DNA from: a virus
IMG/VR virus record: IMGVR_UViG_3300038425_000174
DNA length: 25,434 bases
Direction: 5' to 3' (one strand)
Shown one piece after another: positions 50 to 19,464 of the stretch (its first letter is position 1; each line of letters opens with the position of its first letter). The notes under the pieces were generated by a model that did not search any database, had not been told where the DNA came from, and saw only the letters and a list, made by a program, of their open reading frames with translations. The position numbers and the translations under genes are program-made.

Positions 50-307
50 ATGGCGAAGCGACCCTCTACGAAGCTCCGCGGATATGGGATCGCCCACCAG
101 CGTCTGCGGGCTCACTGGAGCCCCTACGTCGACCGTGGGCAGGTCTCCTGCTGGCGCTGCGGACGGCCGATCCCACCTGGCCAGGCATGGCACCTCGGTC
201 ATGACGACTACGACCGAACACACTATCGGGGACCGGAGCACGTGCGCTGCAATGTCGGCGCGGCGAACAAACGGAAAGCACGGACGAAGCGATCGAGGGT
301 CTGGTGA
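50..307 (+). CDS. HNH endonuclease (phage packaging-associated type)
   Basis: 85 aa with CWRC...WHLGH...GPEHxxCN, the small actinophage HNH pattern; overlaps the next gene (GTGA). Confidence 0.85.
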   Translation: MAKRPSTKLRGYGIAHQRLRAHWSPYVDRGQVSCWRCGRPIPPGQAWHLGHDDYDRTHYRGPEHVRCNVGAANKRKARTKRSRVW

Positions 308-1458
308 TGATTCTTCACGCCGATTGCGTAGAGGCGATGCGGGGGATGTCGGAGAACAGCATCGACGCGATCGTGACCGATCCCCCCTATCACCTGAGCT
401 TCATGGGGCGTAGCTGGGATAAGGCGAGCCCCACCGACTCCCAGGCCATGCATGAGGTCTGGGCACGCGAGGGCCTACGACTCCTGAAGCCCGGGGGGCA
501 TCTTCTCGCCTTTGGCGGCACACGCACCTATCATCGTCTCGCCTGCGGGATCGAGGATGCGGGCTTCGAGATCCGTGACTCACTGATGTGGATTCACGGA
601 CAGGGCTTTCCGAAGTCCAAAAACGTGGCGCTGCTGATCGACAAGGCTGCCGGTCATCCGAACCGCGGACGCGCTATTCCTGCTGCCTCCACGCACTTCC
701 CGACCGGACGGTATGTCGAGGAGAAGTTGACGAGCAACCCGGTCGAGGAATATGAGGCGCGGACGGCCGAGGGTGAGGCGTGGAAAGGCTGGGGCACCGC
801 GCTCAAGCCCGCACACGAGCCGATCGTGATGGCGCGCAAGCCGCTGTCTGGCACGACTGTGAAGAATGTGCTCGCGCATGGTGTTGGGCCGATCAATGTT
901 GATGGCTGTCGTGTCGGGAGCGAGGAGCGGGTCAATACACCTGCCGGGAATAAGCCGGGCGAGGGCTCAGCCCTCTACATGAGCGATTATGGAATGCCAA
1001 CGGACACGACCGGGCGCACGGTGAGGGGACGCTGGCCGGCGAACGTAATCTTGGATGAGGCTGCGGCGATCGAGCTGGATGCTCAGAGTGGCTCGGGGAG
1101 GAGTCGAAAAGGAAAACCCCGCGTGGGGGTCAAGGGTGACGGCTGGGGAATGAGCGCAACCGGCGCGGAGTATGATGACAGGGGCGGCGCATCCCGGTTC
1201 TTCTATTGCGCGAAGGCGGGCCGTAAAGAGCGCGGTGCTGAGAACAAGCACCCGACGGTCAAGCCTCTCGCCCTGATGCGATGGCTGGTGCGGCTCGTGA
1301 CCCCACCGGGCGGGCTTGTACTCGATCCCTTCGCCGGCTCGGGCACCACTGGCCTGGCTGCGATCCGCGAGGGGTTTGAGTTCATCGGGATCGAGCGGGA
1401 ACCTGACTATGTCGCCACGGCGCGCTCGCGGATCTCTCAGGTTTTGGTCAGATCGTAG
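304..1458 (+). CDS. N4-C/N6-A DNA methyltransferase (beta class)
   Basis: Motif IV TDPPY near the N-terminus, HPTVKP, and motif I LDPFAGSGTTG near the C-terminus. Confidence 0.95.
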   Translation: MMILHADCVEAMRGMSENSIDAIVTDPPYHLSFMGRSWDKASPTDSQAMHEVWAREGLRLLKPGGHLLAFGGTRTYHRLACGIEDAGFEIRDSLMWIHGQGFPKSKNVALLIDKAAGHPNRGRAIPAASTHFPTGRYVEEKLTSNPVEEYEARTAEGEAWKGWGTALKPAHEPIVMARKPLSGTTVKNVLAHGVGPINVDGCRVGSEERVNTPAGNKPGEGSALYMSDYGMPTDTTGRTVRGRWPANVILDEAAAIELDAQSGSGRSRKGKPRVGVKGDGWGMSATGAEYDDRGGASRFFYCAKAGRKERGAENKHPTVKPLALMRWLVRLVTPPGGLVLDPFAGSGTTGLAAIREGFEFIGIEREPDYVATARSRISQVLVRS

Positions 1459-1658
1459 GTGCCCGGTGCGACCCTCTCAAATTGCTCGCAGCGTAGCAGG
1501 ATTGCGCCGAGGGTCTGCGAGGGCGTTCTACCTGTGATGTCGAGCTTTTCCCGCCTCAATATGGCCTCGGTCAGGTCGGTCAGTGTCATCGGGCCGCGTC
1601 TGCGCAGGACGGTTTCCGCCTCACTGCGCCAGGTTGGCCTCGTTGTTTTCGCGGGCAT
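1437..1658 (-). CDS. Small winged-helix protein, HARE-HTH-like
   Basis: 73 aa (MPAKTT...VLRRRGPMTLTDLTEAIL...GRTPSQTLGAIL...FERVAPGTYDL); strong RBS GGAAAGGA upstream of ATG 1658; it is the C-terminal part of the listed 1437..2072 ORF. Confidence 0.7.
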   Translation of the reverse strand: MPAKTTRPTWRSEAETVLRRRGPMTLTDLTEAILRREKLDITGRTPSQTLGAILLRCEQFERVAPGTYDLTKT

Positions 1659-1724
1659 GGGAAGTCCTTTCCGTAGTTCGATACCCCATTCTGCCGTTTT
1701 TCGAGCGGAAGTCAAGGAGATGTC

Positions 1725-2282
1725 GTGAGCAAGATCCATCCGGATCTGGAGGCCCTGGCCTTTCCCGTCGAGAAGCTCACCCCCCTGCCGGGTAATCCGC
1801 GGCGCGGGGACGTGGCGGCCGTCGCGCGCAGCTATGCCACCTTCGGGCAGCGTAAGCCGATCGTCGCGAGACGTGAGGGCGACGGCGGGATCGTGATCGC
1901 CGGCAACCACCAGCACGCAGCCGCGAAGGAACTGGGATGGGAGAACATCGCGGTCCTCTGGGTCGACGATGATGATCTCACCGCCAAGGCGTTTGCCCTC
2001 GCCGATAATCGCACCGCCGATCTCGGCTCCTATGACAACGCGGATCTCCTGACGATGCTCCAGTCCGTGCATGACGCGGACAGCGGGCTCTTCGAGGCGA
2101 CGGCGTATGACGAGTCGGCTCTCGCCAACCTGATCGAGAAGCTGGAGATCCCCGATCCGGCGGCAGTGGAAATCGCTGAGTCCTACGCGGTCCTTGTCGA
2201 CTGTGAGTCAGAAGCGGATCAGGTGATCCTGCTGGAACGCCTCACCGAGGAAGGATTGAAATGCCGGGCACTCGTATCGTAG
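1725..2282 (+). CDS. ParB/Srx-like N-terminal domain protein
   Basis: LTPLPGNPRRGDV...FGQRKPIV...IVIAGNH...AAKELGW...ALADNRT; RBS AAGGAG upstream. Confidence 0.9.
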   Translation: MSKIHPDLEALAFPVEKLTPLPGNPRRGDVAAVARSYATFGQRKPIVARREGDGGIVIAGNHQHAAAKELGWENIAVLWVDDDDLTAKAFALADNRTADLGSYDNADLLTMLQSVHDADSGLFEATAYDESALANLIEKLEIPDPAAVEIAESYAVLVDCESEADQVILLERLTEEGLKCRALVS

Positions 2283-3370
2283 TCAGCACCCCGGTCAAGG
2301 ACACCCCACGCGTCCTGCAACTGCGCGGGCTCTTTGATATCCCCGCGGAGAAGACCTCGCAGGTGGAATGGGACGTGAGCCTACCCCTGGAGGAGAAGGA
2401 CTGGCAGATCGGCCTCATTGTGGGACCGTCCGGCTCGGGGAAGTCAACTATCAGTCGCGAGCTATGGGATGTGCAGACGGGTTTTCAGTGGCCGGAGGAT
2501 CAGTCCGTGGTGGATGGCTTCCCAAAGGCGATGGGTATCAAGAAGATCACGGGCCTGCTGTCCTCGGTCGGATTCTCAAGCCCTCCCTCCTGGCTGCGAC
2601 CTTATAGGGTGCTCAGCACGGGTGAGAAATTCCGGGTGGACATCGCCCGGGCGCTTGCGGAGTCCGAGGATCTGGTGGTGATCGACGAGTTCACCTCGGT
2701 GGTCGACCGCACCGTGGCTCAGATCGGCTCGGCGGCCATCGCGAAGGCGATCCGTCGGAGCGGCAATCGCTTCATCGCGGTGACCTGTCACGAGGATATC
2801 GAAGCGTGGCTTCAGCCGGATTGGATCTACCGTCCGGCGACAAACGAGTTCACCTGGGGGTGCCTTCATCGACGCCCAGCGATCGTCCTCAGTGTCTCCC
2901 GTGTCTCTCCTTCGGCCTGGACCCTCTTCCGACACCATCACTATTTAGACAGTGACCTGCACAAATCCGCGACCTGTTTCGGCGCCTGGTGGGAAGGACA
3001 GCTCGTCGCATTCTCTGCCTGGCTGCCGCTGGTCGGCAAAAAGGCGACCAAGAGGGCGACCCGCACCGTGTGCCTCCCTGATTACCAGGGTGTCGGGATC
3101 GGCAACGCCCTGGTGAATCACGCGGCGGAAATGTGGGCCGGTCTCGGCATCACATGCAAGGTAGTCTCGGCCCATCCCGCACTCATCAACAGCCGCAACC
3201 GTTCACCGCTGTGGGCGATGACCCGGCAGCCGTCCCGGTCGAGCCGGAGCGCACAGAAGTTTCGTTACATGGACAAAACGGCGGCGAACCGCCGGTTGGT
3301 CACGGGCTTCCGATACGTCGGCCCCGCGATGGAGCGGGAGGATGCCGAACGGCTGCTTCACTCATTATGA
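2261..3370 (+). CDS. ABC-type ATPase fused to a GNAT acetyltransferase
   Basis: Walker A GPSGSGKS, signature LSTGE, Walker B VVIDEF, H-loop VTCH; C-terminal GNAT motif A RTVCLPDYQGVGIG; no membrane partner nearby. Confidence 0.9.
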   Translation: MPGTRIVVSTPVKDTPRVLQLRGLFDIPAEKTSQVEWDVSLPLEEKDWQIGLIVGPSGSGKSTISRELWDVQTGFQWPEDQSVVDGFPKAMGIKKITGLLSSVGFSSPPSWLRPYRVLSTGEKFRVDIARALAESEDLVVIDEFTSVVDRTVAQIGSAAIAKAIRRSGNRFIAVTCHEDIEAWLQPDWIYRPATNEFTWGCLHRRPAIVLSVSRVSPSAWTLFRHHHYLDSDLHKSATCFGAWWEGQLVAFSAWLPLVGKKATKRATRTVCLPDYQGVGIGNALVNHAAEMWAGLGITCKVVSAHPALINSRNRSPLWAMTRQPSRSSRSAQKFRYMDKTAANRRLVTGFRYVGPAMEREDAERLLHSL

Positions 3371-3882
3371 GACCCCCGATCGAACTTCAGATCTGCCGGG
3401 TCCCGACCTCGGTATGGGTGATCTTCCGGCATCATCATTATCTGGACACGAATCTTCACAAAGCCGCGATATGCTTCGGCGCGTGGTGGAATGAGAGCCT
3501 GATCGCGTTCTGCGCGTGGCTCCCGCACGTCGGCCAGAAGAATGCGAAGCGGGTGACACGGACGGTGTGTCTACCGGACTACCAGGGGGTGGGCATCGGC
3601 AACGCGCTGATGGCTCACACCGCGAGTATGTACTCTGGCCTCGGGGTGAAGTGCCGGGTGAGCGCAACCCACCCCGGGCTGATCGCGAGCTGCAACCGCT
3701 CGCCCCTGTGGGCGCTCACGCGCCAGCCGGCGCGGTCGGGCGGGCGCAGTGTGGGGAAGTTCCGCTGTATGGATGCGGCGAAATCCTACCAACGCCTGAT
3801 CGCGTCCTTTCAGTATGTCGGTCCCCCGATGATCCGGGAGGACGCCGAACGGCTCCTGCATTCCCACGTAGAGGGGTCCTAG
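3367..3882 (+). CDS. Stand-alone GNAT acetyltransferase, paralog of the preceding GNAT domain
   Basis: ATGA-coupled start at 3367; shares FRHHHYLD, RTVCLPDYQGVGIGNAL, NRSPLWA and REDAERLLHS with the upstream protein. Confidence 0.88.
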   Translation: MRPPIELQICRVPTSVWVIFRHHHYLDTNLHKAAICFGAWWNESLIAFCAWLPHVGQKNAKRVTRTVCLPDYQGVGIGNALMAHTASMYSGLGVKCRVSATHPGLIASCNRSPLWALTRQPARSGGRSVGKFRCMDAAKSYQRLIASFQYVGPPMIREDAERLLHSHVEGS

Positions 3883-4075
3883 ATGATCCCCCTAGGGGGT
3901 AGGTCCCCCCAGGGGCTCCGGTCCCCTGAGCCCTCCGTGGTCCCCTCCTACGGGGATCGGTTCGGCTCGGAAGGGTCTAGGAAGGGATCGGGAGCCGATC
4001 CCCTTAGGCTCCCCTGGCGCCCCCTGAGGCTCGATCCCCCAGAATCCCCTAGACCCTGGGGGGCTCGATCCCCTC
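3870..4075. repeat. Low-complexity C-run/G-run intergenic region with short repeats
   Basis: Palindrome CCCCCTAGGGGG at 3888-3899; GATCCCC at 3885, 3997, 4033 and 4067; several CCCCT(A/G) motifs; lies between convergent genes. Confidence 0.5.
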
Positions 4076-4423
4076 TCACCCTCTCACCTCAAAGAGTCCC
4101 AGACGTCCCGGGCATCGCCGGAAGGGCCGAGCCCTGGGATTCGCCAGGACCCAGTGCCAGTATCCCTCCAGCGCCCAGGGTGAGGGATAACCGTGGACGC
4201 AATCCACGACATCCACCACCCCGATGATCCCTCCGGTGGGTGGATCGACCGGGAGGGTGAGCCCCAGGTGATCCAGGTACCCCCACCCCCCCGGAGAGTC
4301 CACCCGGGCAGCGTGGATCAGTAACGGTCCACGGTAGGATGTGGGCCAGGTGCGATTCTCCACATCCTTACCTCCCTGGAGGATCGCCCAGGCCCACGGT
4401 TGCTTGACTGATAGGGCTTTCAT
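4076..4423 (-). CDS. ASCH domain protein
   Basis: MKALSVKQPWAWAILQGGKDVENRTWPTSYRGPLLIHA...GRLGLF; ATGA-coupled start at 4423. Confidence 0.93.
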   Translation of the reverse strand: MKALSVKQPWAWAILQGGKDVENRTWPTSYRGPLLIHAARVDSPGGWGYLDHLGLTLPVDPPTGGIIGVVDVVDCVHGYPSPWALEGYWHWVLANPRARPFRRCPGRLGLFEVRG

Positions 4424-4638
4424 CGGTTCACCGTAACCGTATTCCCTGGACGGAACCGCCAGCCGCAATGGGCACAGTGTCGGATCAGCCGTGGCTCCAC
4501 GGCCGGTGGTATTGTGGGATGCCCGCATTTTGGACACCGGTGTTCTTGCTTGTCTGTGGCTTCTCGCAGGTCTCGCAGGATCACCAGAGCCTCCCTCTTA
4601 CTGATGCGGGGTCCCTCGATGCGGTATCGGTGGGTCAT
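4420..4638 (-). CDS. Small Zn-ribbon protein
   Basis: CPKC...CAHC; ATGA overlaps at both ends. Confidence 0.7.
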   Translation of the reverse strand: MTHRYRIEGPRISKREALVILRDLREATDKQEHRCPKCGHPTIPPAVEPRLIRHCAHCGWRFRPGNTVTVNR

Positions 4639-5450
4639 ATCGTCATCACTCCACGGGCTGCCATCTCCGCACACTCTACCTGCTCCTGCTTGAGCTGCTC
4701 TGCGACACCCTCCGCAGCCCGGTTGGCTTCTTCGGTGACGTACTTTGACTCTCCGATGAATCCCCAGCAGGAGTCATAGAATGGCCCCTGCAGATCCTCA
4801 CCGTCGGGTCCCTTGATGATGTATCCGTACACTTCCCCCGCGAGGTAGGCCCCATACTCCGAGGCTTCCGACTTGAGATACCTCAATGCGGCCTCGCGGT
4901 CCCCCGGCCATTCCTTCTCGACGGTCTCACGGTCGCACACGATGATCCCGTTACAGGACTCCGGATCACTCTCCCCACAGCGGCTCCCACTGGAGCCATA
5001 GTCGTCAAACCGGATCGGCAGGAACACCGAACCGGCTCCGTACTCAGACGCGACCCATTCATCGAGGTCGGCCTCCCGCTTCCCCTCACCTTTGCAGAGG
5101 GAGCACGTGGCTGCCCTCACGCTCAGGCTGGCCGGATCACGATCGCACTCGTGTTCCATCGACTCCCGGGAGCCGATCCCAACCACCTTACCGAGGAACC
5201 TTCCCCGGATGAGTTCGGTGCGCTTGGGATCGTCTCCTGTCCCTTCACATCGGGGACACTCCAGCTCCAGGTACTGGGGATCGATGCTCACCTGCTCGTC
5301 TCCCCAGGAATACCGGCTGCCGTAGCCTCCCTCGTTGAAGTAGATCATGACCCCCGCGTGGTCGGGCTCCTTACGGGGATCGAATTCACTGTCATCGTAG
5401 TGTAGCTCCACCGTCACTCCGGCGTGCTCGTATGTGTCAAACGGCTCCAT
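4635..5450 (-). CDS. Acidic phage protein with GEVYGY/DSCWGF motifs and a DnaJ-type Zn finger
   Basis: CPRCEGTG...CSLCKGEG; YLAGEVYGY...DSCWGFIG; RBS GAAAGGTG before ATG 5450. Confidence 0.8.
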   Translation of the reverse strand: MEPFDTYEHAGVTVELHYDDSEFDPRKEPDHAGVMIYFNEGGYGSRYSWGDEQVSIDPQYLELECPRCEGTGDDPKRTELIRGRFLGKVVGIGSRESMEHECDRDPASLSVRAATCSLCKGEGKREADLDEWVASEYGAGSVFLPIRFDDYGSSGSRCGESDPESCNGIIVCDRETVEKEWPGDREAALRYLKSEASEYGAYLAGEVYGYIIKGPDGEDLQGPFYDSCWGFIGESKYVTEEANRAAEGVAEQLKQEQVECAEMAARGVMTI

Positions 5451-5652
5451 CTGTTTCACCTTTCATGATTGCAGCGATATGCAGACGGACTGCCTGAGCC
5501 CCCATATAGGAGACTCCTCCTCGATCGGGGTCGGGCAGCCCATTGCGTATCACCTGCTGGTAGTAACGCTCGGCATAATCACGCTTCGACTTGTTCCGTA
5601 TCCGGTCGATGTACCGCCGGATCTCATTGTGTGCTGTGAGTAGATCGTTCAT
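5437..5652 (-). CDS. Hypothetical protein (71 aa)
   Basis: MNDLLTAH...; TGATG coupling with the upstream gene. Confidence 0.7.
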   Translation of the reverse strand: MNDLLTAHNEIRRYIDRIRNKSKRDYAERYYQQVIRNGLPDPDRGGVSYMGAQAVRLHIAAIMKGETDGAV

Positions 5653-6014
5653 CACGCTGCCTTCAACTGCACGCCGTACTTGGGGTCGATCCTGCGCGCT
5701 GTCAGTGCCGGGCGTTTTTTGGCCCTCGGTTTGAATCCCCATCCGACTCGGGGACCGAACCAAATCGCACCATTGAACGGTGGCTTGGCTTCTGCGATCA
5801 GCGCGACTTCCCGCGCCGTTCGCCCGGTAGGTAGGGTTGTGACCTTGGTCGACTTCCGCTCGGAGAGCCCCCGAGCCTGGTAGCCGGCCATGAACGCACC
5901 CGCCAACCCGAGATCATCGAAGGTCTCCAGTGTGCTCCATCCCGTAGGGGTGATGAGCACCACGGCGACTTCACCGTTCTCGTGATCGGTGATTTCTACT
6001 GCTGTCTTTCTCAT
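5652..6014 (-). CDS. Hypothetical protein (120 aa)
   Basis: RBS AAGGAG before ATG 6014; fits the operon tiling. Confidence 0.72.
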   Translation of the reverse strand: MRKTAVEITDHENGEVAVVLITPTGWSTLETFDDLGLAGAFMAGYQARGLSERKSTKVTTLPTGRTAREVALIAEAKPPFNGAIWFGPRVGWGFKPRAKKRPALTARRIDPKYGVQLKAA

Positions 6015-6023
6015 GTCTGCTCC

Positions 6024-6236
6024 TTACTCTGGTTTCCTCGTCGGTCCGAAGTGCGCGTAACGCACCGCGTCGACGATCTCCTCAACGTCGATCCCTTCCC
6101 GCACCCACCGACTGATATTCTCATCGGTGAAGGTTCGGGTGATCGGGTGAGGTTCGATGTCCTCCCGGTTGACTGTGACTCTTCCGACAAGCTCACCGTC
6201 GGGTGTGGTCACGTTGATGTAAGCGACGACGCTCAT
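6024..6236 (-). CDS. Hypothetical protein (70 aa)
   Basis: MSVVAYINV...; ATGA coupling at 6233-6236. Confidence 0.68.
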   Translation of the reverse strand: MSVVAYINVTTPDGELVGRVTVNREDIEPHPITRTFTDENISRWVREGIDVEEIVDAVRYAHFGPTRKPE

Positions 6237-6421
6237 GTGATTCTGATCCTTTCCGAGTTGGCGATCAGCGTGTCCAGGTCCTGCGCCCACGCTGCTGTCT
6301 CCTCCCAGGTTTCCCCGACCCCGTCGCGACCCACCCCCGCTGCCTTGCAGAGGGCACAGGTCGACACGTAACTCTGGAGTGCCGCCCGGATGATCCGTTC
6401 CTGTCTCGCATTGAGTGTCAT
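6233..6421 (-). CDS. Hypothetical protein (62 aa)
   Basis: RBS GAGGAG; ATGA coupling at both ends. Confidence 0.68.
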   Translation of the reverse strand: MTLNARQERIIRAALQSYVSTCALCKAAGVGRDGVGETWEETAAWAQDLDTLIANSERIRIT

Positions 6422-6639
6422 TGTGTCTCCTCAATCGTGCCGTGGTAGCGGTGGCTCAACTCCTCCACCGTGCGATAGTCATCATCATCGAGGTCCCCCG
6501 GACCGTCCATCGATTGACGCCAACAGTCGCCCGATAGGCCATCGTGGGTCCACCAGCCAGTAAGTTGTAGGGTGATCGGACGCCCACAGTCTGGACAGGT
6601 TCCCACGGGACGCTTACTGATGTCTCTCTCGGTAGTCAT
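6418..6639 (-). CDS. Hypothetical protein, possible metal-binding (CPDC...H...C)
   Basis: ATGA-coupled; CxxC motif. Confidence 0.65.
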   Translation of the reverse strand: MTTERDISKRPVGTCPDCGRPITLQLTGWWTHDGLSGDCWRQSMDGPGDLDDDDYRTVEELSHRYHGTIEETQ

Positions 6640-6854
6640 TGCTGCGTCGCTTTCATCTGGTCGTGTACCGTCTTACGTGTTACGCCTGCGATGGTGGAGA
6701 TCTCGGTGATCGAGATCCCCGCCTCCCTACACTGCTCAGCAAGCGTTCCTAGCTCGATGCGCAGTTCACTGAGTTGCCTTTCCGTGGTCTCCCTCCGTTG
6801 GCGATAATCCCGCAGGAGGGCGCGACACTTCTCGGGTTTGATTGGACGGGTCAT
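6636..6854 (-). CDS. Helix-turn-helix DNA-binding protein
   Basis: N-terminal coiled coil followed by REAGISITEISTIAGVTRKTVH. Confidence 0.8.
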   Translation of the reverse strand: MTRPIKPEKCRALLRDYRQRRETTERQLSELRIELGTLAEQCREAGISITEISTIAGVTRKTVHDQMKATQQ

Positions 6855-7228
6855 CCGTAGATCCTCCCATCGTCACCGACGTACAGATACGCCTCACCCG
6901 CACCGGTTCGATCCCAATATCCGCACCCGTGACCATTGCGAGTTAGCCACAGGTCGTGTCCGGCGTAGGCCATCGGCTCGCCCTCGGCAGGGTTGTAGGT
7001 GATCTTCTCGCAGTACTCTTCGAGATCGCCCGTGTGCTCCGTCATGAACCCGAGGCAGTCTTCGCACATGGTGTCGAAGGTGTCCGGGTCGATGTCCCGT
7101 CCGGTGTAGTTCTGGTCCAACGGCTCACCTCCCTGTTCATTGCTCTGATCACTTGACGACCATAGGGCGCACGTGATGTAGCCGTGTATGAATTCCCCGA
7201 CGTCCCGGGTTGTGAATGTGAAGGTCAC
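6851..7228 (-). CDS. Conserved phage protein (GHDxWLTRNGHGxGxWDR family)
   Basis: GYITCALWSS...AGHDLWLTRNGHGCGYWDR...LYVGDDGRIY; function unknown. Confidence 0.8.
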   Translation of the reverse strand: MTFTFTTRDVGEFIHGYITCALWSSSDQSNEQGGEPLDQNYTGRDIDPDTFDTMCEDCLGFMTEHTGDLEEYCEKITYNPAEGEPMAYAGHDLWLTRNGHGCGYWDRTGAGEAYLYVGDDGRIYG

Positions 7229-7509
7229 TTGGACTCACCGTCCCAATCGTAGGTTGTGAACTCGCCGGTCTCCACCTCGGTCATCAGCTCACGCATGGGC
7301 CAGAACCGCTCCCAGCCCTCGCGCGTCGTGACCCGCAGGTAGAGGTCCCGGATGTCATCGTCCGACTGTCCGAAGGCGCCGGTCTGATCGCCGACGCTCC
7401 GGGCCGTGCCATAGACGACTGTTCCATCGTCATAGGCACGCGCTACCTTGGCACAGGTCTGCGCGGTGCGCAGCACCTCAGCCGCTGCTAGCGTTTCCTG
7501 GATGTTCAT
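7225..7509 (-). CDS. Hypothetical protein (94 aa)
   Basis: RBS AAGGAG; coupled at both ends. Confidence 0.72.
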   Translation of the reverse strand: MNIQETLAAAEVLRTAQTCAKVARAYDDGTVVYGTARSVGDQTGAFGQSDDDIRDLYLRVTTREGWERFWPMRELMTEVETGEFTTYDWDGESK

Positions 7510-7685
7510 GATCGCTCCTTACCGTCCTCGGTGATGTAGTGGTGGGTCCCGTCCTCACACTGGACGTGGACCAGGATACCTGCGGTCGAGAGGGTCACGT
7601 TGACCTCGCAGGTGCCGTGCTCCAGGCACAACGCCTCGATCGCGTTCTGCTGCTCTCGTGTCTCTGGGATGTGTTCGCCTCTCAT
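7506..7685 (-). CDS. Hypothetical protein (59 aa)
   Basis: ATGA-coupled start at 7685. Confidence 0.62.
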   Translation of the reverse strand: MRGEHIPETREQQNAIEALCLEHGTCEVNVTLSTAGILVHVQCEDGTHHYITEDGKERS

Positions 7686-8290
7686 GACCGACCCCCCAAC
7701 CCGCACGCGGTCTCGATCGAGCGCGCGATGGTGTCTACCGTCTCGGCGTGTTTCTTGATCGCGGCGAGATCCCCGTTCTCACCCCATCCTGCGATGTAGG
7801 GGATCGACTCACCCGACGTGTCCAGTCCCAACGAGCCGCACACGATCGTGGCCGCGGTCTCTACGATCACCTCAGCTTCACCGCGGGTGTATTCCTTATA
7901 GGTCACGCCGTGGGCGTGCGCCAGCTCGTGAATCAGCGTCCGCACCTTGCCATTCGGCGCTAGGTCGGTCGAGATCACGATCCGCTTGCCCTTCTCATCG
8001 TAGAATCCCTGGGCCTCGCTCGTCGGCTCGTACTCGTAGACCGTGAGATCCATCGAGCGCGCCAGTGCCTTCAATGGCTCCAGGTAGTGCTCGTGTGAAT
8101 CTCCGGTGATCGGCTCGCGTGGAACCTCCGGCAATGACTCACCGTCGGTCTGCGATATATCGAACTGTAGTCGTGGAACGTCGCCCGGGTCTCGCCTGCG
8201 CCAACCATCGGACGTGAGAAGCTCGCGAACAGCGCGCTCGACCTGCTCGCGCTGCTCGGCTCGCCTCTGCTCCTTGTCCTGGGTGCTCAC
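7682..8290 (-). CDS. ArdC-like protein with an intact HExxH zincin-like domain and an internally deleted ssDNA-binding domain
   Basis: LLTSDGW...FDISQTDG...GFY...TLIHELAHA...AEVIVETAA...LGLDT..S..YIAGW; an out-of-frame relic ETRATFHDYS lies at 8193-8164. Confidence 0.8.
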   Translation of the reverse strand: MSTQDKEQRRAEQREQVERAVRELLTSDGWRRRDPGDVPRLQFDISQTDGESLPEVPREPITGDSHEHYLEPLKALARSMDLTVYEYEPTSEAQGFYDEKGKRIVISTDLAPNGKVRTLIHELAHAHGVTYKEYTRGEAEVIVETAATIVCGSLGLDTSGESIPYIAGWGENGDLAAIKKHAETVDTIARSIETACGLGGRS

Positions 8291-8469
8291 TTGTTGCTCC
8301 TTATGTTGAACTTGTGAACCTCGTACAGCGGTCCGAGTGGGTTGCTACGGACCATGTAGAAGTTCGGGGTCTCTTCTACTACTTCCCACGTCCCCGCACC
8401 GATAGTGCAGGACTTGAGATCCTCATTGTGCGCCCCGGTCGGCGCCGTGAGTGTGATTGTTGAGGTCAT
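8287..8469 (-). CDS. Hypothetical protein (60 aa)
   Basis: Fills the gap between ArdA and the ArdC-like gene; GTGA coupling. Confidence 0.6.
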   Translation of the reverse strand: MTSTITLTAPTGAHNEDLKSCTIGAGTWEVVEETPNFYMVRSNPLGPLYEVHKFNIRSNK

Positions 8470-8472
8470 CGG

Positions 8473-9039
8473 TTAGCACCGGTAGAATACGAAGACGCCA
8501 CCGCCGGGAGCGTCAACGCTGTGGAAGCCTTCCATCAGCTCCTCCGTGGCGCGGTCCCAGTCGATGCAGTTGTACGGCCACCGCACCTCGCCAGCGGCGT
8601 TTCCACACCTTGCACACTCGCTGTCCTCTTTGACTGCTCCCGTCGACTCCGCCCACTCTTCGGCGAAGGCGCGGTCACTATCCCAGTGTCCTGCTTTTGC
8701 CTCCTCGAACCTCGCCTCATCGAGAGGGTCGTCGGCGTCTTCGGCCCACGCGATGTATTCATCACCGTGCTTCTCGATCAGGGCGCCGATCCGAGCGACC
8801 CGATCCAGTTGCTCGTATTCACCGATGAGGTCGCCGAATCCTTCCCGATCCATCAGTGCGAACTCATCCCCTGCTTCCAGGGGACCGACCTTTGCGACCG
8901 CCTCCCGCTGAACGCCCTCCTGCGCCTCGCGCAGCTCATCGACGTCGGTGGCATCCACCCACCTGCCGATCAGGTGCCCGGAGTTGTAGGCGCCCAGCGA
9001 GCCGATCCACACTCGTGGGGTTGTGTTTGTTGCCTGCAT
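8473..9039 (-). CDS. ardA: Antirestriction protein ArdA (DNA mimic)
   Basis: PRVWIGSLGAYNSGHLIGRWVDA at the N-terminus; IGEYE; FEEA..G.WDS...FAEE; IDW; VFVF at the C-terminus; highly acidic; RBS AAGGAG. Confidence 0.9.
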   Translation of the reverse strand: MQATNTTPRVWIGSLGAYNSGHLIGRWVDATDVDELREAQEGVQREAVAKVGPLEAGDEFALMDREGFGDLIGEYEQLDRVARIGALIEKHGDEYIAWAEDADDPLDEARFEEAKAGHWDSDRAFAEEWAESTGAVKEDSECARCGNAAGEVRWPYNCIDWDRATEELMEGFHSVDAPGGGVFVFYRC

Positions 9040-9065
9040 GATCTTGCTCCTTCTCTCGTGGTTGG

Positions 9066-9317
9066 TTAGCGGTTGAGCCCTAGCTCATCTGCCAGGTCGT
9101 AGTGATGAATCGCTGCGTCCAATGCCGGGTCATTCTCCACTCCGATGTAGACGAAGACGTTAGGCACTCCGTCGTCCGTATCGTCACTCGGGTTGAAGTA
9201 GATCGTGGTTTCTTTCGAGCCATCGTCCGTCCGCACGATGTAACCCACTCGCCCGTCGTTGTAAAACGGGATGTAATACACCCCATCCGAGGTGTAGATT
9301 GCTGGAAAGCGTTTCAT
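9066..9317 (-). CDS. Hypothetical acidic protein (83 aa)
   Basis: MKRFPAIY...; RBS AAGGAG before ATG 9317, directly downstream of hammerhead 3. Confidence 0.75.
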   Translation of the reverse strand: MKRFPAIYTSDGVYYIPFYNDGRVGYIVRTDDGSKETTIYFNPSDDTDDGVPNVFVYIGVENDPALDAAIHHYDLADELGLNR

Positions 9318-9339
9318 GATTCTCCTTGTCCTTGTTCTT

Positions 9340-9408
9340 TGGCTTGACTTCGTCAGCACGGCGGGAGCCACCCGCTCGTGGACCGGGACCGGAGCCCCGG
9401 TTTCGTCA
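9340..9408 (-). ncRNA. Type II hammerhead ribozyme 3 (core CUGACGA plus an extra A)
   Basis: UGAC-GAAA-CCGGGGC(UCCG)GUCCCGG-UC-CACG A GCGGG(UGGCU)CCCGC CGUG-CUGACGA-A-GUCA-AGCCA; tail AGCCA pairs with loop I UGGCU; predicted cut after C9381. Confidence 0.9.
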
Positions 9409-9621
9409 CCATTCACCTCCGATCCCTTCCGCGCGATCGGCGCACCGATCACACTGATACCCGCGCGCCACGTCCAACGGTGTGAGCACGTTCTTTGCTC
9501 CGCAGTTCGGGCACGGCAGGTTGCGGGGGTTCCGGCGGGTCGCGGCACGTAAGGCGCTGCGCCCACCCGGCTCAGCGAATCCAACCCCGTCGATCGGCTC
9601 GTCGTCCCAGTCGTGGGTCAT
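9406..9621 (-). CDS. Small Zn-ribbon protein (71 aa)
   Basis: VGFAEPGGRSALRAA...NPRNLPCPNCG...GYQCDRCAD; ATGA-coupled. Confidence 0.8.
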   Translation of the reverse strand: MTHDWDDEPIDGVGFAEPGGRSALRAATRRNPRNLPCPNCGAKNVLTPLDVARGYQCDRCADRAEGIGGEW

Positions 9622-9941
9622 GGTGAACATCTCACGTAGGAGTCGCGACTGTTCACCGCTTCGCTCAGGCAATGTTCGATGCACTCCTGCGTGTGTCCAC
9701 CACCCCACAACGCTTTCCGGATCGCAACCCGCCGTGGTGTGACGGATCGTGTGTGCCCCTGCCACTTGCGCTGTGACAGGGTGACCCAGGTGAGCCAGCG
9801 TCGTCGGGCCGCCTTTACTATCTCCAGCGCCTCTGGATCGCCACTCCTGATCGCGTAGACCGCCTTCGCCCTGTCGATCCCACCTTTCGTGAGATTCCCG
9901 TACATCAGTTCCAGGGCGCGGGTTTTCTCATAGCTCGTCAT
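9618..9941 (-). CDS. Hypothetical protein (107 aa)
   Basis: RBS GGAGGT; fits the operon tiling. Confidence 0.65.
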   Translation of the reverse strand: MTSYEKTRALELMYGNLTKGGIDRAKAVYAIRSGDPEALEIVKAARRRWLTWVTLSQRKWQGHTRSVTPRRVAIRKALWGGGHTQECIEHCLSEAVNSRDSYVRCSP

Positions 9942-10263
9942 CGCTATTCACCTCCGCTACTCGGGACTCAGCAGCGGCGACGCTCTCGAAGCTCTCCGCC
10001 GTCTTGAATCCATAGTTATCGGTCCAGAGAATGAACCGACCGAATCTCGCTGCGTGCCCGTCGGCGAATTCGACGTTCCCGGCTGACTCGTCCTCCCCAC
10101 CGACTCCGGTGAGGATGTCGAGCGCTACCACGAGCGCCAGATCATCGGCGCCCTCGTAGCGACCGGGACGCGCCGCGCTCGCCTCGGACGCCATCGCCTC
10201 CGGATCGATCTTCTCGGCGTGCTCGATTAGTTCGAGTCTGTCTTTGTCATCTAGTGAGTACAT
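9928..10263 (-). CDS. Hypothetical acidic protein (111 aa)
   Basis: Fits the operon tiling; PGRYEG and ILWTDNYGF motifs. Confidence 0.75.
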   Translation of the reverse strand: MYSLDDKDRLELIEHAEKIDPEAMASEASAARPGRYEGADDLALVVALDILTGVGGEDESAGNVEFADGHAARFGRFILWTDNYGFKTAESFESVAAAESRVAEVNSDDEL

Positions 10264-10266
10264 TAC

Positions 10267-10593
10267 CTACTCGCCTCCCTTTGGGAAATCGTAGCTGCGG
10301 AAGCTGCTCGCTTGGTAGGCGATCTCACCCACCTCATCGCAGTACACCTCTGCCTGCTCACCCTTCACCCACACCTTCGCGCCACGCTTGAAGACGCGCC
10401 GTACGGTGTAGGTGTCGTTCGCAGCGAGGTCGACGGTCACGGTATAGCCGCTGCCAACGGGCAGTGTCACACCGGTCTCGCGGACGAGCACGCGCCCGCC
10501 GCTGATGGCGAGGATGTTCATCCGTCCGATCTGCGCGAGCAGTTCCCGTGCGTCGCACTCGCGAAACACCTCTGTGGTTACTCTCTCTTGCAT
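10267..10593 (-). CDS. Conserved phage hypothetical protein (108 aa)
   Basis: QIG..NILAISGGR...DLAANDTYTV...VYCDE; RBS AAGGAG directly downstream of hammerhead 2. Confidence 0.8.
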   Translation of the reverse strand: MQERVTTEVFRECDARELLAQIGRMNILAISGGRVLVRETGVTLPVGSGYTVTVDLAANDTYTVRRVFKRGAKVWVKGEQAEVYCDEVGEIAYQASSFRSYDFPKGGE

Positions 10594-10610
10594 GGTCACT
10601 CCTTGTTCGT

Positions 10611-10674
10611 TGACTTGGCTCATCGGCGAGTGAGTAGTCAGCTCACCCGGACCGGGCTCGCGCCCGGTTTCGCC
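10611..10674 (-). ncRNA. Type II hammerhead ribozyme 2 (variant core CCGAUGA)
   Basis: GGC-GAAA-CCGGGC(GCGA)GCCCGG-UC-CGGGUGAG(CUGACUA)CUCACUCG-CCGAUGA-GCC-A-AGUCA; tail AGUCA pairs with loop I UGACU; predicted cut after C10650. Confidence 0.87.
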
Positions 10675-10676
10675 GC

Positions 10677-10919
10677 TCACTTCCGAGTACACGGGAACAC
10701 CCTGTAGATGAATCCCTCTTGCTCCTGTGCGGCCCAATCCGCTTCGTCCTCGGCGATGTAGGCCTCGACGCTCTCGGCGGTCAGTCCGTGGTAGACCTCG
10801 CAGCCGTAGCGCGCCTCGGCCCTCCCGACGTCTGCGCAGCCGCACTTGTGGATGCCGAAGTCGTACTCGTTGTTCAGGCGCGTGTTCACCGTGTTCACTA
10901 TGTCTAGCGTGACGCTCAT
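10677..10919 (-). CDS. Hypothetical protein (80 aa, HxxxC...PC possible metal site)
   Basis: RBS AAGGA; ATGA-coupled start at 10919. Confidence 0.72.
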   Translation of the reverse strand: MSVTLDIVNTVNTRLNNEYDFGIHKCGCADVGRAEARYGCEVYHGLTAESVEAYIAEDEADWAAQEQEGFIYRVFPCTRK

Positions 10920-11041
10920 TGCCGTCCTTCTTGGTCGAGTTGAATGATTGATGTGGCGGGGATCACCCGCACACGCCTCATGCGTTGGGGGAGGAAGAGG
11001 GCACGTAGCCACTCGCCCCAGGTAATGTCAGTGTTACTCAT
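10916..11041 (-). CDS. First small ORF of the leftward operon (41 aa)
   Basis: RBS AAGGAG before ATG 11041, directly downstream of hammerhead 1; stop coupled to the next gene. Confidence 0.6.
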   Translation of the reverse strand: MSNTDITWGEWLRALFLPQRMRRVRVIPATSIIQLDQEGRQ

Positions 11042-11060
11042 GGTGTTGCTCCTTCTAGGT

Positions 11061-11122
11061 TGACGCTCATTCAGCGGGTGCTCGTCACTCACCCGGACCC
11101 GGGGGGCGACCCCGGGTTTCGC
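11061..11122 (-). ncRNA. Type II hammerhead ribozyme 1 (variant core CUGAAUGA, 2-bp stem II)
   Basis: GC-GAAA-CCCGGGG(UCGCC)CCCCGGG-UC-CGGGUG(AGUGACGAG)CACCCG-CUGAAUGA-GC-GUCA; tail GUCA pairs with loop I UGAC; predicted cut after C11096. Confidence 0.87.
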
Positions 11123-11124
11123 AC

Positions 11125-11548
11125 TATCAAAGTTCTGCTTCGCTTCTCGCGGTTGTAGGACGCTTCCTCGCTCCATGTCTCGGTTCGCCTTGTGTGATCC
11201 ACGGCCATCCAATCCTGAAGTGGGATCTCTAGCCCCACGAGTGTCACAGGATGCTGCTGGATGATCGGGCGGGTCAGCCGGTTCCCCGGTTCACTTCGCT
11301 CGTTGTGTCCGTTAGGTGTCGTATTCGCTCGAACACTGCCGATCCTGATCAGGGGGTCGGAGTGATACTCAAGCCGGAGGTCTCACTTCTCCGTTGTCAC
11401 GCCCTAGTCAGTTTCCGGGGGGTTCGGTCGGTGGGATCTGTAGTGTCCCTTCCGGGTCCGGGCCTGGTGCCTTTCACCTTTCAGGTCCCTCGCTTTTCAA
11501 CCCGTGTCCCCGTCCATAGGGGCGATGGGGGGTGTGGACTCACCCTTC
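11125..11548 (-). ncRNA. Candidate large structured non-coding leader RNA
   Basis: No credible ORF or RBS; many nested helices found by eye, with a long-range closing helix (GGUUG/CAACC plus GGGAC/GUCCU) and A-rich junctions. Confidence 0.5.
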
Positions 11549-11579
11549 AACTATGTACCTACAACTGTATAGGCGATAT

Positions 11580-11686
11580 CTAAAGGCTTCCTAAAGGTTG
11601 GCGAGGGGCTATCTAAATGTTGTCTAAAGACCGGATAGACCCTATCTAAACCCTCTCTAAGGGGCTCCTAAAGACCCCCTAAAGGC
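11580..11686. repeat. 11-bp-phased CTAA(A) direct-repeat array
   Basis: CTAA starts at 11580, 11591, 11613, 11624, 11646, 11657, 11668 and 11679, all on one 11-bp register. Confidence 0.9.
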
Positions 11687-11695
11687 GTTTCACCT

Positions 11696-15420: not shown

Positions 15421-16902
15421 ATGACTGAAACGTTGACCGTGGAGCGCGCCCTGGAGCGCGAGTGGCGGGCAAAGTACAAACAAGCCGACCGCGATGAAAT
15501 GGCGAAAAGCGGGAAGGCGATGTCTGACGGGTCCTATCCCATAGCCGACGAAGACGATCTCAAAAAAGCGATCAAAGCCGTCGGCCGCGGTAGCGCCAGT
15601 CACGACTCCATCCGCAAGCACATCATCTCTCGCGCGAAGGCGCTGAAACTCTCCAGCCTGATTCCCGACAACTGGAACGCGGACGGTTCACTCAAGGAAG
15701 AAAAGTCGGTCTGGTCAACCCTTGAGGAGCGGGAAACCTACAACGACCTGCGCCAGGCCGTCGAATCGGCCATCGCCGACTCCCTGCCCAAGAAGAAGAG
15801 CGAAAACGTCTACGGGCCGTACGTAGTAGACATGACGGACGACTGGGCGGTCTACGAATACGAAGGCGACCTATGGCAGGTGAACTACACGGTCGACTCC
15901 GACGGAGAGGTGACTCTTGGCGAGCCAGAGCAGGTGCGTCGGATCACCAGCTACGAGGCGAACTCCCACCGCGCCGACGAAGAGGAAGAAGAGTGCCCCA
16001 CCTGCAAAGGCACCGGGAAAATCAAGGGCGGTTCGACAAAATGTCCCGACTGCGACGGAACCGGGGAGCTAGGAGGGCCGAGCGAGAACGCAGCGCGGGA
16101 TGATCTGGAGCGCCGGGCACGCCACGCCCGCGAGCGCGAAGGCATGGTCGAGTTCCGCTCTATCCCCTCCTTCGAGCTTAGGGACACTGCCGACGGCCAC
16201 GTGCGGTTCTCCGGCTACGCCTCAACGACCGAATCCCCCTATGAGATAGCCGATTTCACCGAGACGGTCGCCAAAGGCGCGTTCAAGCGCACTCTCGGCG
16301 AAGAGCCTGACGTCCGGCTGAATATCAATCACGGCGTCGGCGGACAGCTCCCCCTGGCGAGAACCAAGTCGGGAACGCTGACCCTCAGCGAAGACGCGAG
16401 GGGCCTCAAGGTCGATGCGGATCTCGATCCCAATGATCCCGACGTACGATCCCTGCTTCCGAAGATGCGTCGGGGGGACGTCGACGAAATGTCCTTCGCC
16501 TTCAGGGCCACGGCTCAGGAGTGGAATGAGGACTACACCGAGCGACTGATCCGGGAGTGCGCACTTCACCGTGGTGACGTCTCGATCGTGACGACCGGCG
16601 CCAACCCGGACACCTCGGCGATCATCCGCTCGGCCGACGGGCAGATCGAGCTTCGGATCGGTAAAGCGATCAGCGGTGACCGGGAAGCGGTTATCAAAGA
16701 GGTCCTCGATCACATGACGGTGGCCGACGAGCACATTAGCCAAAGCATGGACAAGCTGTCAGGCGTCGTCGGAACCGTCGACACGGACATCGATGCCGAA
16801 CCGGCTGAGGATCTCGGTCGGTTGAAGATCACGGTCATTCCGCGCTCCTACGTAGAGACCGCAAAGGCGAGACGGGCGAGGCTGATGGGAGGTGGGAAGT
16901 GA
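15421..16902 (+). CDS. HK97-family prohead protease with a multidomain N-terminal extension
   Basis: FSGYAS...GAFKRTL...NH...PLART.SGTL...EMSFAF...DVSIVT.GANP.T; RBS GGAGGT. Confidence 0.93.
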   Translation: MTETLTVERALEREWRAKYKQADRDEMAKSGKAMSDGSYPIADEDDLKKAIKAVGRGSASHDSIRKHIISRAKALKLSSLIPDNWNADGSLKEEKSVWSTLEERETYNDLRQAVESAIADSLPKKKSENVYGPYVVDMTDDWAVYEYEGDLWQVNYTVDSDGEVTLGEPEQVRRITSYEANSHRADEEEEECPTCKGTGKIKGGSTKCPDCDGTGELGGPSENAARDDLERRARHAREREGMVEFRSIPSFELRDTADGHVRFSGYASTTESPYEIADFTETVAKGAFKRTLGEEPDVRLNINHGVGGQLPLARTKSGTLTLSEDARGLKVDADLDPNDPDVRSLLPKMRRGDVDEMSFAFRATAQEWNEDYTERLIRECALHRGDVSIVTTGANPDTSAIIRSADGQIELRIGKAISGDREAVIKEVLDHMTVADEHISQSMDKLSGVVGTVDTDIDAEPAEDLGRLKITVIPRSYVETAKARRARLMGGGK

Positions 16903-18080
16903 GCGATGCGCTAGAGCTTGCGACACCCGAGCCCACCCAGGAGCAGCGTGCCATCATCGAGCGCGCCGAAGCCAACGGTCATCGCGCCGTCGGCGAGCCG
17001 CTGATCTACGAGTACCGGAATCGCCGGAGCTACTGCCGTGACCTCGCCCTTCGTGAGAGTCGCAATACGGCGGCGGGGGAGCGGCTCAGGAAGCACATGC
17101 GCCAGATGCAGGCCGTCCCGAAGCGGGAGATGCGCAGCCTGGAGGGGGTCGAGTTCCGCGTCAACCCAAACCTGACGGCAGGGACGGGTGGTGAGTTCGC
17201 TCCTCCCCTCTGGCTGAACGAGCTGTTCGCTATGGCCAGGCGTCCGGGTGAGGTCATTCAAAGACTCGCGCCGACGTTCGATCTTCCCCCAGGCGTATCG
17301 TCGGTGAACCTGCCAAGGATGACGCAGGGAACCGTCGCGAGTCAGAACGTGGCCGGTACTCCGGTTGACGATCAGGACGTCGAAACGGAAGCCGTCAAAT
17401 CCCCCGCTGCGACGTTCGTGGGAATGTCCGACTGGGCACTACAGGCCCTTGAGCAGTCCCCTGCCGGCGCGCATCTGGATTGGGTGGTCTTCAAGGATCT
17501 CTTCGATTCGCTCGACGCGGAAGTCGAGTACGAACTGATAGCGGGGTCGGGCGAAAACGAACGATTCTACGGATTGATCAACGTCGCGGGGAACAACAAA
17601 ATCACCTACACGTCCGCCAATCCGACGGGTCCGGGGATGATCCCGTACCTCGGCCAGGCAGCGGCGCAGGTCGGTGTGAAACGTCGTCTGCCGCCGGAAG
17701 CGTGGCTAGCTACGACGTCCCGCTTCTTCTGGCTCGCATTCTCCGAGGATAGTGCCAACAGACCGCTATCGATTGAAGACTACCCGCACTCGAACTTCCC
17801 GAACGCCGGGCTCGGAAGTGTGGGGGTCTATTTCGACGACGCGATCACCACCACCCTCGGGGTGAGCAAGGAACAGGATGTCGTGATCGCCTGCCGACCG
17901 TCCGACTTCGTACTCCTGGTCTCGGAACCGAAACCGTCCGTGAAGCTCGACGTGCTGTCGGGCTCTCTGTCGGCGCGGTTCGAGCTGCATCGCTACGTCG
18001 CAGCGATTCTCGGACGCTATCCCTCTGGCATCTCGGTCGTAGAAGGCACGGGCATGAAGACACAGGAAGGCTTCCACTGA
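16899..18080 (+). CDS. Major capsid-like protein 1 (HK97 fold, short N-terminal scaffold)
   Basis: GGEFAPPLWL, LPPGVSSVNLPR, QALEQSP, DVLSGSL..RF; colinear with 19465..21192. Confidence 0.88.
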   Translation: MSDALELATPEPTQEQRAIIERAEANGHRAVGEPLIYEYRNRRSYCRDLALRESRNTAAGERLRKHMRQMQAVPKREMRSLEGVEFRVNPNLTAGTGGEFAPPLWLNELFAMARRPGEVIQRLAPTFDLPPGVSSVNLPRMTQGTVASQNVAGTPVDDQDVETEAVKSPAATFVGMSDWALQALEQSPAGAHLDWVVFKDLFDSLDAEVEYELIAGSGENERFYGLINVAGNNKITYTSANPTGPGMIPYLGQAAAQVGVKRRLPPEAWLATTSRFFWLAFSEDSANRPLSIEDYPHSNFPNAGLGSVGVYFDDAITTTLGVSKEQDVVIACRPSDFVLLVSEPKPSVKLDVLSGSLSARFELHRYVAAILGRYPSGISVVEGTGMKTQEGFH

Positions 18081-19307: not shown

Positions 19308-19464
19308 TTACTCCCCATCGACCGGCCCCTTGCCGCTCTGATGGCCACAGAACTTACCCGCGTTGGACCCCGCCTGACTGGCGTTGAGCTTACTGCTCGC
19401 CCTGGTGTTGGCCGGTTCTCCGCTCGGGAGAAGCACAGAGACAAACTCCCGAAAGGAACGCAGT

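Follow-up and report, generated by a model that had tools for sequence, protein, structure and literature searches.

The three hammerhead motifs

The 25,434-nucleotide (nt) viral DNA of record IMGVR_UViG_3300038425_000174, called the window where its whole length is meant, carries on its minus strand a run of about 22 mostly small open reading frames (ORFs), from 11041 to 4076, and on its plus strand an HNH gene together with tailed-phage genes for terminase, portal and capsid. A structure descriptor applied to the whole window recognised three type II hammerhead ribozyme motifs (HH1, HH2 and HH3) in a 1.8-kb stretch, all on the minus strand (Table 1). HH2 and HH3 occupy the sole long junctions of the gene run (83 and 88 nt); the remaining junctions are of 26 nt or less, and from such junctions we infer a single transcript for the last product (Table 1).

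All three motifs are three-helix junctions with the order stem II, GAAA, stem III, NUH, stem I, core, stem II', and in each of them C3–G8, G5, A6, A9, G12, A13, A14, A15.1–U16.1 and H17 are present, the GUC triplet is intact and the helices are perfect or near-perfect. Complementarity between loop I and the 3' tail allows a putative pseudoknot of four, five and five Watson-Crick (WC) pairs in HH1, HH2 and HH3, respectively, and from the end of the pseudoknot to the next start codon there are 19, 17 and 22 nt, with an AAGGAG ribosome-binding site (RBS) in each case. HH2 starts 2 nt past the stop codon at 10679–10677, and stem II of HH3 overlaps the upstream stop codon at 9408–9406.

The descriptor, which had been loosened once the core variants described below had been seen, gave three matches in the window and none in 60 dinucleotide shuffles of it. 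Because of this relaxation, an independent covariance model (R1) was built from 83 hammerheads of other viral contigs, with the window excluded. R1 found the same three motifs, with the scores given in Table 1; the next best score in the whole window was 11.7 bits, and no fourth copy was found there by this model. The descriptor and R1 together confirm what a preliminary description of the locus had reported, namely, three minus-strand elements of this helix order with predicted GUC cleavage sites after C11096, C10650 and C9381; the pseudoknot of each, and the distance of 17–22 nt to a start codon preceded by AAGGAG, were likewise found as described. Rfam was also compared, as the same description had proposed. 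The motifs share the permutation, catalytic residues and pseudoknot of RF02276, but their cores are non-consensus, and the model finds HH3 alone, under its gathering score of 37, whereas HH1 and HH2 are unlisted at E-values of up to 1.

Of 69 aligned columns, HH1 and HH2 agree in 50, among them those of the 5' strand of stem I and the UGAC arm of the pseudoknot, so that they likely share a duplication. HH3 is more distant from both (42/70 columns for HH1 and 44/69 for HH2). The three had been taken for covarying homologs rather than recent copies; pairing is indeed kept in all of them, but the likely duplication of HH1 and HH2 corrects this view.

Table 1. Features of the hammerhead array and of the minus-strand gene run (coordinates of the window)
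Feature	Position	Strand	Details
HH1, type II hammerhead motif	11061..11124	-	descriptor; R1 33.5 bits; stem II 2 WC bp, G12 at 11120, stem III 8 bp, stem I 6 bp
HH1 predicted cut	after C11096	-	
HH1 core	11074-11067	-	CUGAAUGA (A6a insertion)
HH1 pseudoknot	11087-11084 with 11064-11061	-	without linker A
HH2, type II hammerhead motif	10611..10674	-	descriptor; R1 59.1 bits; stem II 3 bp, G12 at 10671, stem III 7 bp with GCGA loop, stem I 8 bp
HH2 predicted cut	after C10650	-	
HH2 core		-	CCGAUGA (U4C at 10625)
HH2 pseudoknot	10640-10636 with 10615-10611	-	
HH3, type II hammerhead motif	9340..9408	-	descriptor; R1 54.9 bits; RF02276 32 bits; stem II 3-4 bp, G12 at 9404, stem I bulged
HH3 predicted cut	after C9381	-	
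HH3 core		-	CUGACGA, extra A9349 before stem II
HH3 pseudoknot	9370-9366 with 9344-9340	-	
AAGGAG RBS and ATG of 41-aa ORF (10916-11041)	11041..11054	-	after HH1; sequence
AAGGAG RBS and ATG of 108-aa ORF (10267-10593)	10593..10604	-	after HH2; weak phrog_9437 match of ORF
AAGGAG RBS and ATG of 83-aa ORF (9066-9317)	9317..9327	-	after HH3; sequence
Leader, about 420 nt	11125..11550	-	purine-rich, no convincing ORF; HH1 cut would release it
Piece from cut 1 to cut 2 (about 446 nt)	10651..11095	-	ORFs of 41 and 80 aa; inferred
Piece from cut 2 to cut 3 (about 1269 nt)	9382..10649	-	ORFs of 108, 111, 107 and 71 aa; inferred
Last product, at least 5.3 kb	4076..9380	-	about 16 close-packed ORFs, ASCH last; predicted
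ArdA antirestriction protein, 188 aa	8473..9039	-	second ORF after HH3; PF07275 71.5 bits (cut-off 27); phrog_2059
ArdC-like ORF, 202 aa	7682..8290	-	without ArdcN, zincin domain kept
ASCH-domain ORF	4076..4420	-	final gene of run; PF04266 30 bits
Phased 11-bp repeats (TTTAG core, minus strand)	11553..11685	.	between leader and terminase small subunit gene

None of the three cores has the strict consensus, in which CUGANGA is followed directly by stem II. Each motif has a different change: an A6a insertion in HH1, U4C in HH2, and an extra A between A9 and G10.1 in HH3; no catalytic residue is altered by any of them. The same three departures have been published singly and in other contexts, whereas here they occur together in one phage array. 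A6a is described as a natural variant of low activity, and U4C as considerably less active in vitro, yet sufficient in vivo for a viroid (PMC3088659). The extra A10 of the CChMVd (chrysanthemum chlorotic mottle viroid) (+) hammerhead causes a moderate decrease in cleavage, and for the nucleotide after A9 the same source gives the in vitro order U>A>C,G, U speeding cleavage 3–4-fold and C or G being detrimental (PMC3705267). Since all three cores carry variants published as rate-lowering, cleavage here is likely partial, and a clean split of the transcript into four RNAs is doubtful. HH3 is predicted to cut best, and HH2, with U4C, and HH1, with A6a, the weakest stem II (2 WC bp) and no linker A, are predicted to be slower.

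Hammerheads in other viral contigs and in homologous loci

A pattern scan of viral contigs, covering 21 of 64 parts (about 370 stretches estimated), yielded 133 loci that hold 202 distinct hammerheads in 115 groups. Three features that had not been used in finding these copies were frequent among them: a stop triplet at most 10 nt upstream (164/202; control, 22%), an RBS and start codon within 80 nt (181/202), and a pseudoknot of at least 4 bp (118/202; control, 25%). Such frequencies are in keeping with a function at the borders between genes. Among 52 nucleotides inserted after A9, 46 were U, four A, one C and one G; this order matches that of the in vitro rates, and points to selection for cleavage in the hammerhead family. 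The arrangement is common, and arrays reach about 15 copies in the loci examined. Covariation was also counted (set A1: 94.5% paired, against 66.5% in shuffled sequences), but these counts are partly circular, the sequences having been selected for pairing, and were not used as main evidence.

Odd or slow cores were recognised in 30 of 168 model hits from 55 of the scan's and related loci, or in 17 of 153 (about 11%) when one degenerate array (L047) was set aside; the seed pattern allowed U4C and not A6a, and the rates are rough. In a full scan for A6a, 11 of 48 matching viral loci (10 distinct sequences) held complete hammerheads with intact helices, so that A6a is a recurrent and tolerated form. 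U4C gave two descriptor matches in 120 loci of genome contigs (5/64 parts scanned), one of them convincing. Two arrays deserve separate mention. L047 (2962–10663, minus strand) has 15 hammerhead-like copies, of which 13 are odd in core or stem II and many are fused directly to the RBS; this array is possibly degenerating or repurposed. L033 (5409–9611, minus strand) has four hammerheads, three of them with variant cores (U4C plus insertions, A6a), and is the closest parallel to the array described here.

No close relatives of the phage were found: relatives of its TerL are 38–54% identical and those of its ArdA 56% at most, a homolog search with the 80-aa ORF between HH1 and HH2 returned only that ORF, and in cultured phages there were only four short matches at chance level. 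The stem I pattern of HH1 and HH2 occurs in no viral locus, and in three genome loci, all without hammerheads. Homologs of window genes were found in 84 loci (24 + 3 + 2 + 3/31 + 19/22 + 33, from separate homolog sets; metagenome scan, 9/64 parts), and the covariance model detected hammerheads in one of them (L294), at 123–198 and 1037–1115. The second of the two carries U4C, and one directly follows a homolog of the 71-aa ORF, as in the window. Locus L263, with the same ArdC-ASCH/ATPase-ParB layout, has no hammerheads. So, the ribozymes are dispensable for these genes, and on this evidence they are a trait of certain phage lineages rather than of the genes. Among 111 ArdC loci, eight had descriptor matches, of which only L272 was convincing. 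RF02276 had no match in three Solirubrobacterales-labelled genomes, nor in its controls, so that this negative says nothing about those genomes. The survey of homologous operons suggested in the preliminary description has in this way given one locus with hammerheads, and did not demonstrate conservation in orthologous operons.

Proposed partial self-processing and its alternatives

We consider it fairly probable that a presumed long early transcript is cleaved by the hammerheads, at low rates and incompletely, into separate messages. Cleavage at the three sites would give a leader, a 446-nt piece with two ORFs, a 1269-nt piece with four, and a last one that is at least 5.3 kb long and has about 16. 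By hammerhead chemistry, each upstream piece would retain its stop codon and close with the stem III hairpin followed by a 2',3'-cyclic phosphate, and at the foot of the stem I hairpin and pseudoknot each downstream piece would bear a 5'-hydroxyl (5'-OH), 54–63 nt before the start codon, so that the separate messages would begin and end in hairpins. With HH3 cutting best and HH2 and HH1 more slowly, a mix of precursor and products would be expected. The purpose would be that every block has protected ends and decays at a rate of its own, with no need of host RNases. Triple arrays of such hammerheads, including one around ardA of Agrobacterium tumefaciens, are reported to cleave in vitro and in Escherichia coli (PMC3088659). 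Of the earlier proposal that self-cleavage splits one transcript into a leader and three 5'-OH messenger RNAs, processing remains the best reading, while a clean split is made doubtful by the slow cores.

That such processing would set stability, as had also been proposed, holds with a reservation. Ribozyme-made 5'-hydroxyl ends are described as slowing end-dependent decay (preprint 10.1101/2020.07.22.216051), whereas in Gram-positive bacteria the self-cleavage of glmS, which leaves a 5'-OH product, results in decay (PMC6765202); a 5'-OH end may thus stabilise an RNA or not. Unmasking of the RBS by cleavage is unsupported: its predicted accessibility, for secondary structure without pseudoknots, barely changes, from 0.59–0.67 before to 0.65–0.67 after cleavage.

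Several points weigh against partial self-processing. The glmS precedent and the unchanged RBS accessibility are two of these, and the occurrence of hammerheads in one of the 84 homologous loci, with the hammerhead-free L263, is another. The Rfam gathering score of 37 is reached by none of the motifs, and a search of the minus strand gave no sigma-70-like promoter. All three cores are of slow type, which is unexpected if speed mattered, odd cores elsewhere amounting to 17 of 153. Finally, the internal deletion in the ardC-like gene could mean that the whole block is decaying.

The last two points lead to the view that the motifs are relics, ancestrally active, of which HH1 and HH2, and perhaps all three, are now too slow and are kept as RBS-bearing spacers. 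Beside the three variant cores and the deleted ardC-like gene, this view can draw on the 2-bp stem II and missing linker A of HH1, on the ease with which two of the core changes, being single-A duplications, could arise, and on L047, which shows that arrays can degenerate (13/15 odd copies). However, all three changes are of types reported active and spare the catalytic residues, all helices and pseudoknots pair, and random decay would more often strike other core positions or stems; the ardC-like ORF is itself in frame despite two lesions. We regard decay as unlikely; most likely the core variants are not dead, selection for speed being weak enough to tolerate them.

The opposite view is that each ribozyme cuts at its own reduced rate, that the early transcript is thereby divided into graded shares, and that core variants in phage hammerhead arrays are selected settings and not damage; it is to be given little credence. 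In the form in which the changes set three rates, or cutting depends on a cue (for example, the ribosome leaving the overlapping stop codon) and grades or times expression along the run, we think it quite improbable. The coincidence of three different slow variants, for which independence would give a probability of about 0.001 (0.11 cubed), speaks for tuning, as do the three variant cores among the four of L033 and the closeness of HH3 and HH2 to stop codons; regulated slow variants in phages have also been raised as a possibility (PMC3088659). The comparison, however, is post hoc over many windows, variant cores are not clustered by locus when L047 is set aside (p=0.25), and no ortholog shows the variants conserved, while tight packing and avoidance of non-stop messages would also explain the adjacency to stop codons. 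The sole distinctive trait of the locus, that one short array unites three different variants that lower the rate, is in this sense suggestive and post hoc.

Rejoining of the 5'-OH and cyclic-phosphate ends of each inter-ribozyme fragment into circular messages, by a hybrid hammerhead formed from these two ends or by a host RtcB-type ligase, is most improbable: it draws at the level of the family on the sharing of the second stem II pair, which is higher within phages (0.81, in 20 groups of at least three copies) than between them (0.25) and exceeds that of stem I or III pairs, and on a hybrid stem II of at least 3 bp being possible in 62 of 85 consecutive pairs (L002–L079 arrays; control, 31%), but the hybrid here would have only 2 bp (HH1–HH2) or 1 bp (HH2–HH3), such sharing also follows from duplication and slow change beside the core, and the published account of the phage hammerheads reports that circular or spliced products were sought and none found (PMC3088659). 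For other arrays, the near-uniformity of this pair within a phage and its variability between phages is a hint of fragment self-ligation.

Neighbouring genes and relation to known arrays

The preliminary description had called the run an anti-restriction operon, which is overstated. ArdA is one of about 22 ORFs in the run and one of about 16 on the last fragment; it is not directly flanked by ribozymes, as HH3 is separated from ardA by an 83-aa ORF and no hammerhead is found downstream of ardA, and ASCH is not an anti-restriction protein. ArdA, the ArdC-like ORF and ASCH all lie on the last fragment, as had been stated, but among its other ORFs, and the ArdC-like ORF has no match to PF08401 (ArdcN). 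Its length is 202 aa, whereas the relatives listed have a median of 283. Two deletions, the smaller near 8194 and the larger at 8164, take away residues 61–125 of an 88%-identical relative, and ArdcN with them, yet leave the ORF open. Ten codons of the old frame persist at 8193–8164. In other contigs, the ORFs directly behind hammerheads were ArdA in two of 144 cases and ArdC, of full length, in one (L016:7336–7911, L036:3680–4174 and L008:4481–5395), and most had no Pfam family. A role of the hammerheads specific to anti-restriction is rejected on these numbers.

The leader is A-rich and U-poor, with many small hairpins, two of them alike (near 11447–11430 and 11236–11219). It is not supported as a new structured RNA: its folding z was -0.48, no 120-nt window upstream of HH1 was below z -1.4, and no Rfam match and, in the loci searched, no blastn homolog was found. 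From 11212 an open frame that lacks a clear RBS continues across HH1 and into the first ORF. Low-complexity stretches bracket the run, namely, the TTTAG repeats at 11553–11685 and G/C-run repeats with inverted arms at 3880–4075; these are possibly protein-binding or packaging-site DNA. The genes for HNH and TerL are adjacent in two relatives (L158 and L159) and about 11.7 kb apart here, so that the run may lie near the packaging site. The block of about 11 kb between HNH and terminase (304–11690) contains a methylase, a ParB-like gene, an ATPase-acetyltransferase and the early run. In translation, the C-terminal part of the ATPase-acetyltransferase ORF (region 2261–3882, plus strand) seems repeated in the next ORF. 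Two separate major-capsid-like genes (16899–18080 and 19384–21192, plus strand) both match phrog_2263. The best genome matches of the ArdC-like C-terminus are in Solirubrobacterales metagenome-assembled genomes (60–64% identity), which suggests an actinobacterial host.

The early RNA of phage T7, which carries the anti-restriction gene 0.3, offers one comparison. There, too, RNase III divides a long early transcript of a phage into messages of gene size (PMC5371410), but T7 uses a host enzyme, whereas here the RNA would cut itself, leaving 5'-OH and cyclic-phosphate ends. A closer one is given by Perreault et al. (2011), who described type II pseudoknotted hammerheads, their clusters flanking prophage genes and a processing hypothesis (PMC3088659). 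The A. tumefaciens triple in that account likewise consists of three close hammerheads between small phage genes with ardA nearby, and there too processing of a polycistronic RNA was proposed and the purpose was unknown. It differs from the array here, in which ardA is the second ORF after HH3 and not flanked, every core is a variant, the motifs are known from sequence and the host is likely an actinobacterium. As in the published clusters, several hammerheads on the coding strand here separate genes or short gene blocks. In short, the arrangement and the processing hypothesis were already published in 2011, and this array adds another instance.

That pseudoknotted type II hammerheads occur among phage genes with unclear purpose, as the preliminary description had stated, agrees with that account, and a 2019 review still calls the purpose of the clusters undefined (PMC6765202). 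No later publication settling their function was found in a literature search, most subscription journals being outside it, and the locus itself leaves the question unanswered. It does, however, hold three natural rate-lowering variants within 1.8 kb, and one construct could test cutting rate against gene dosage in a phage operon. If cutting rate sets dosage, phages would tune expression through ribozyme kinetics, and such variants would provide graded self-processing parts for synthetic biology.

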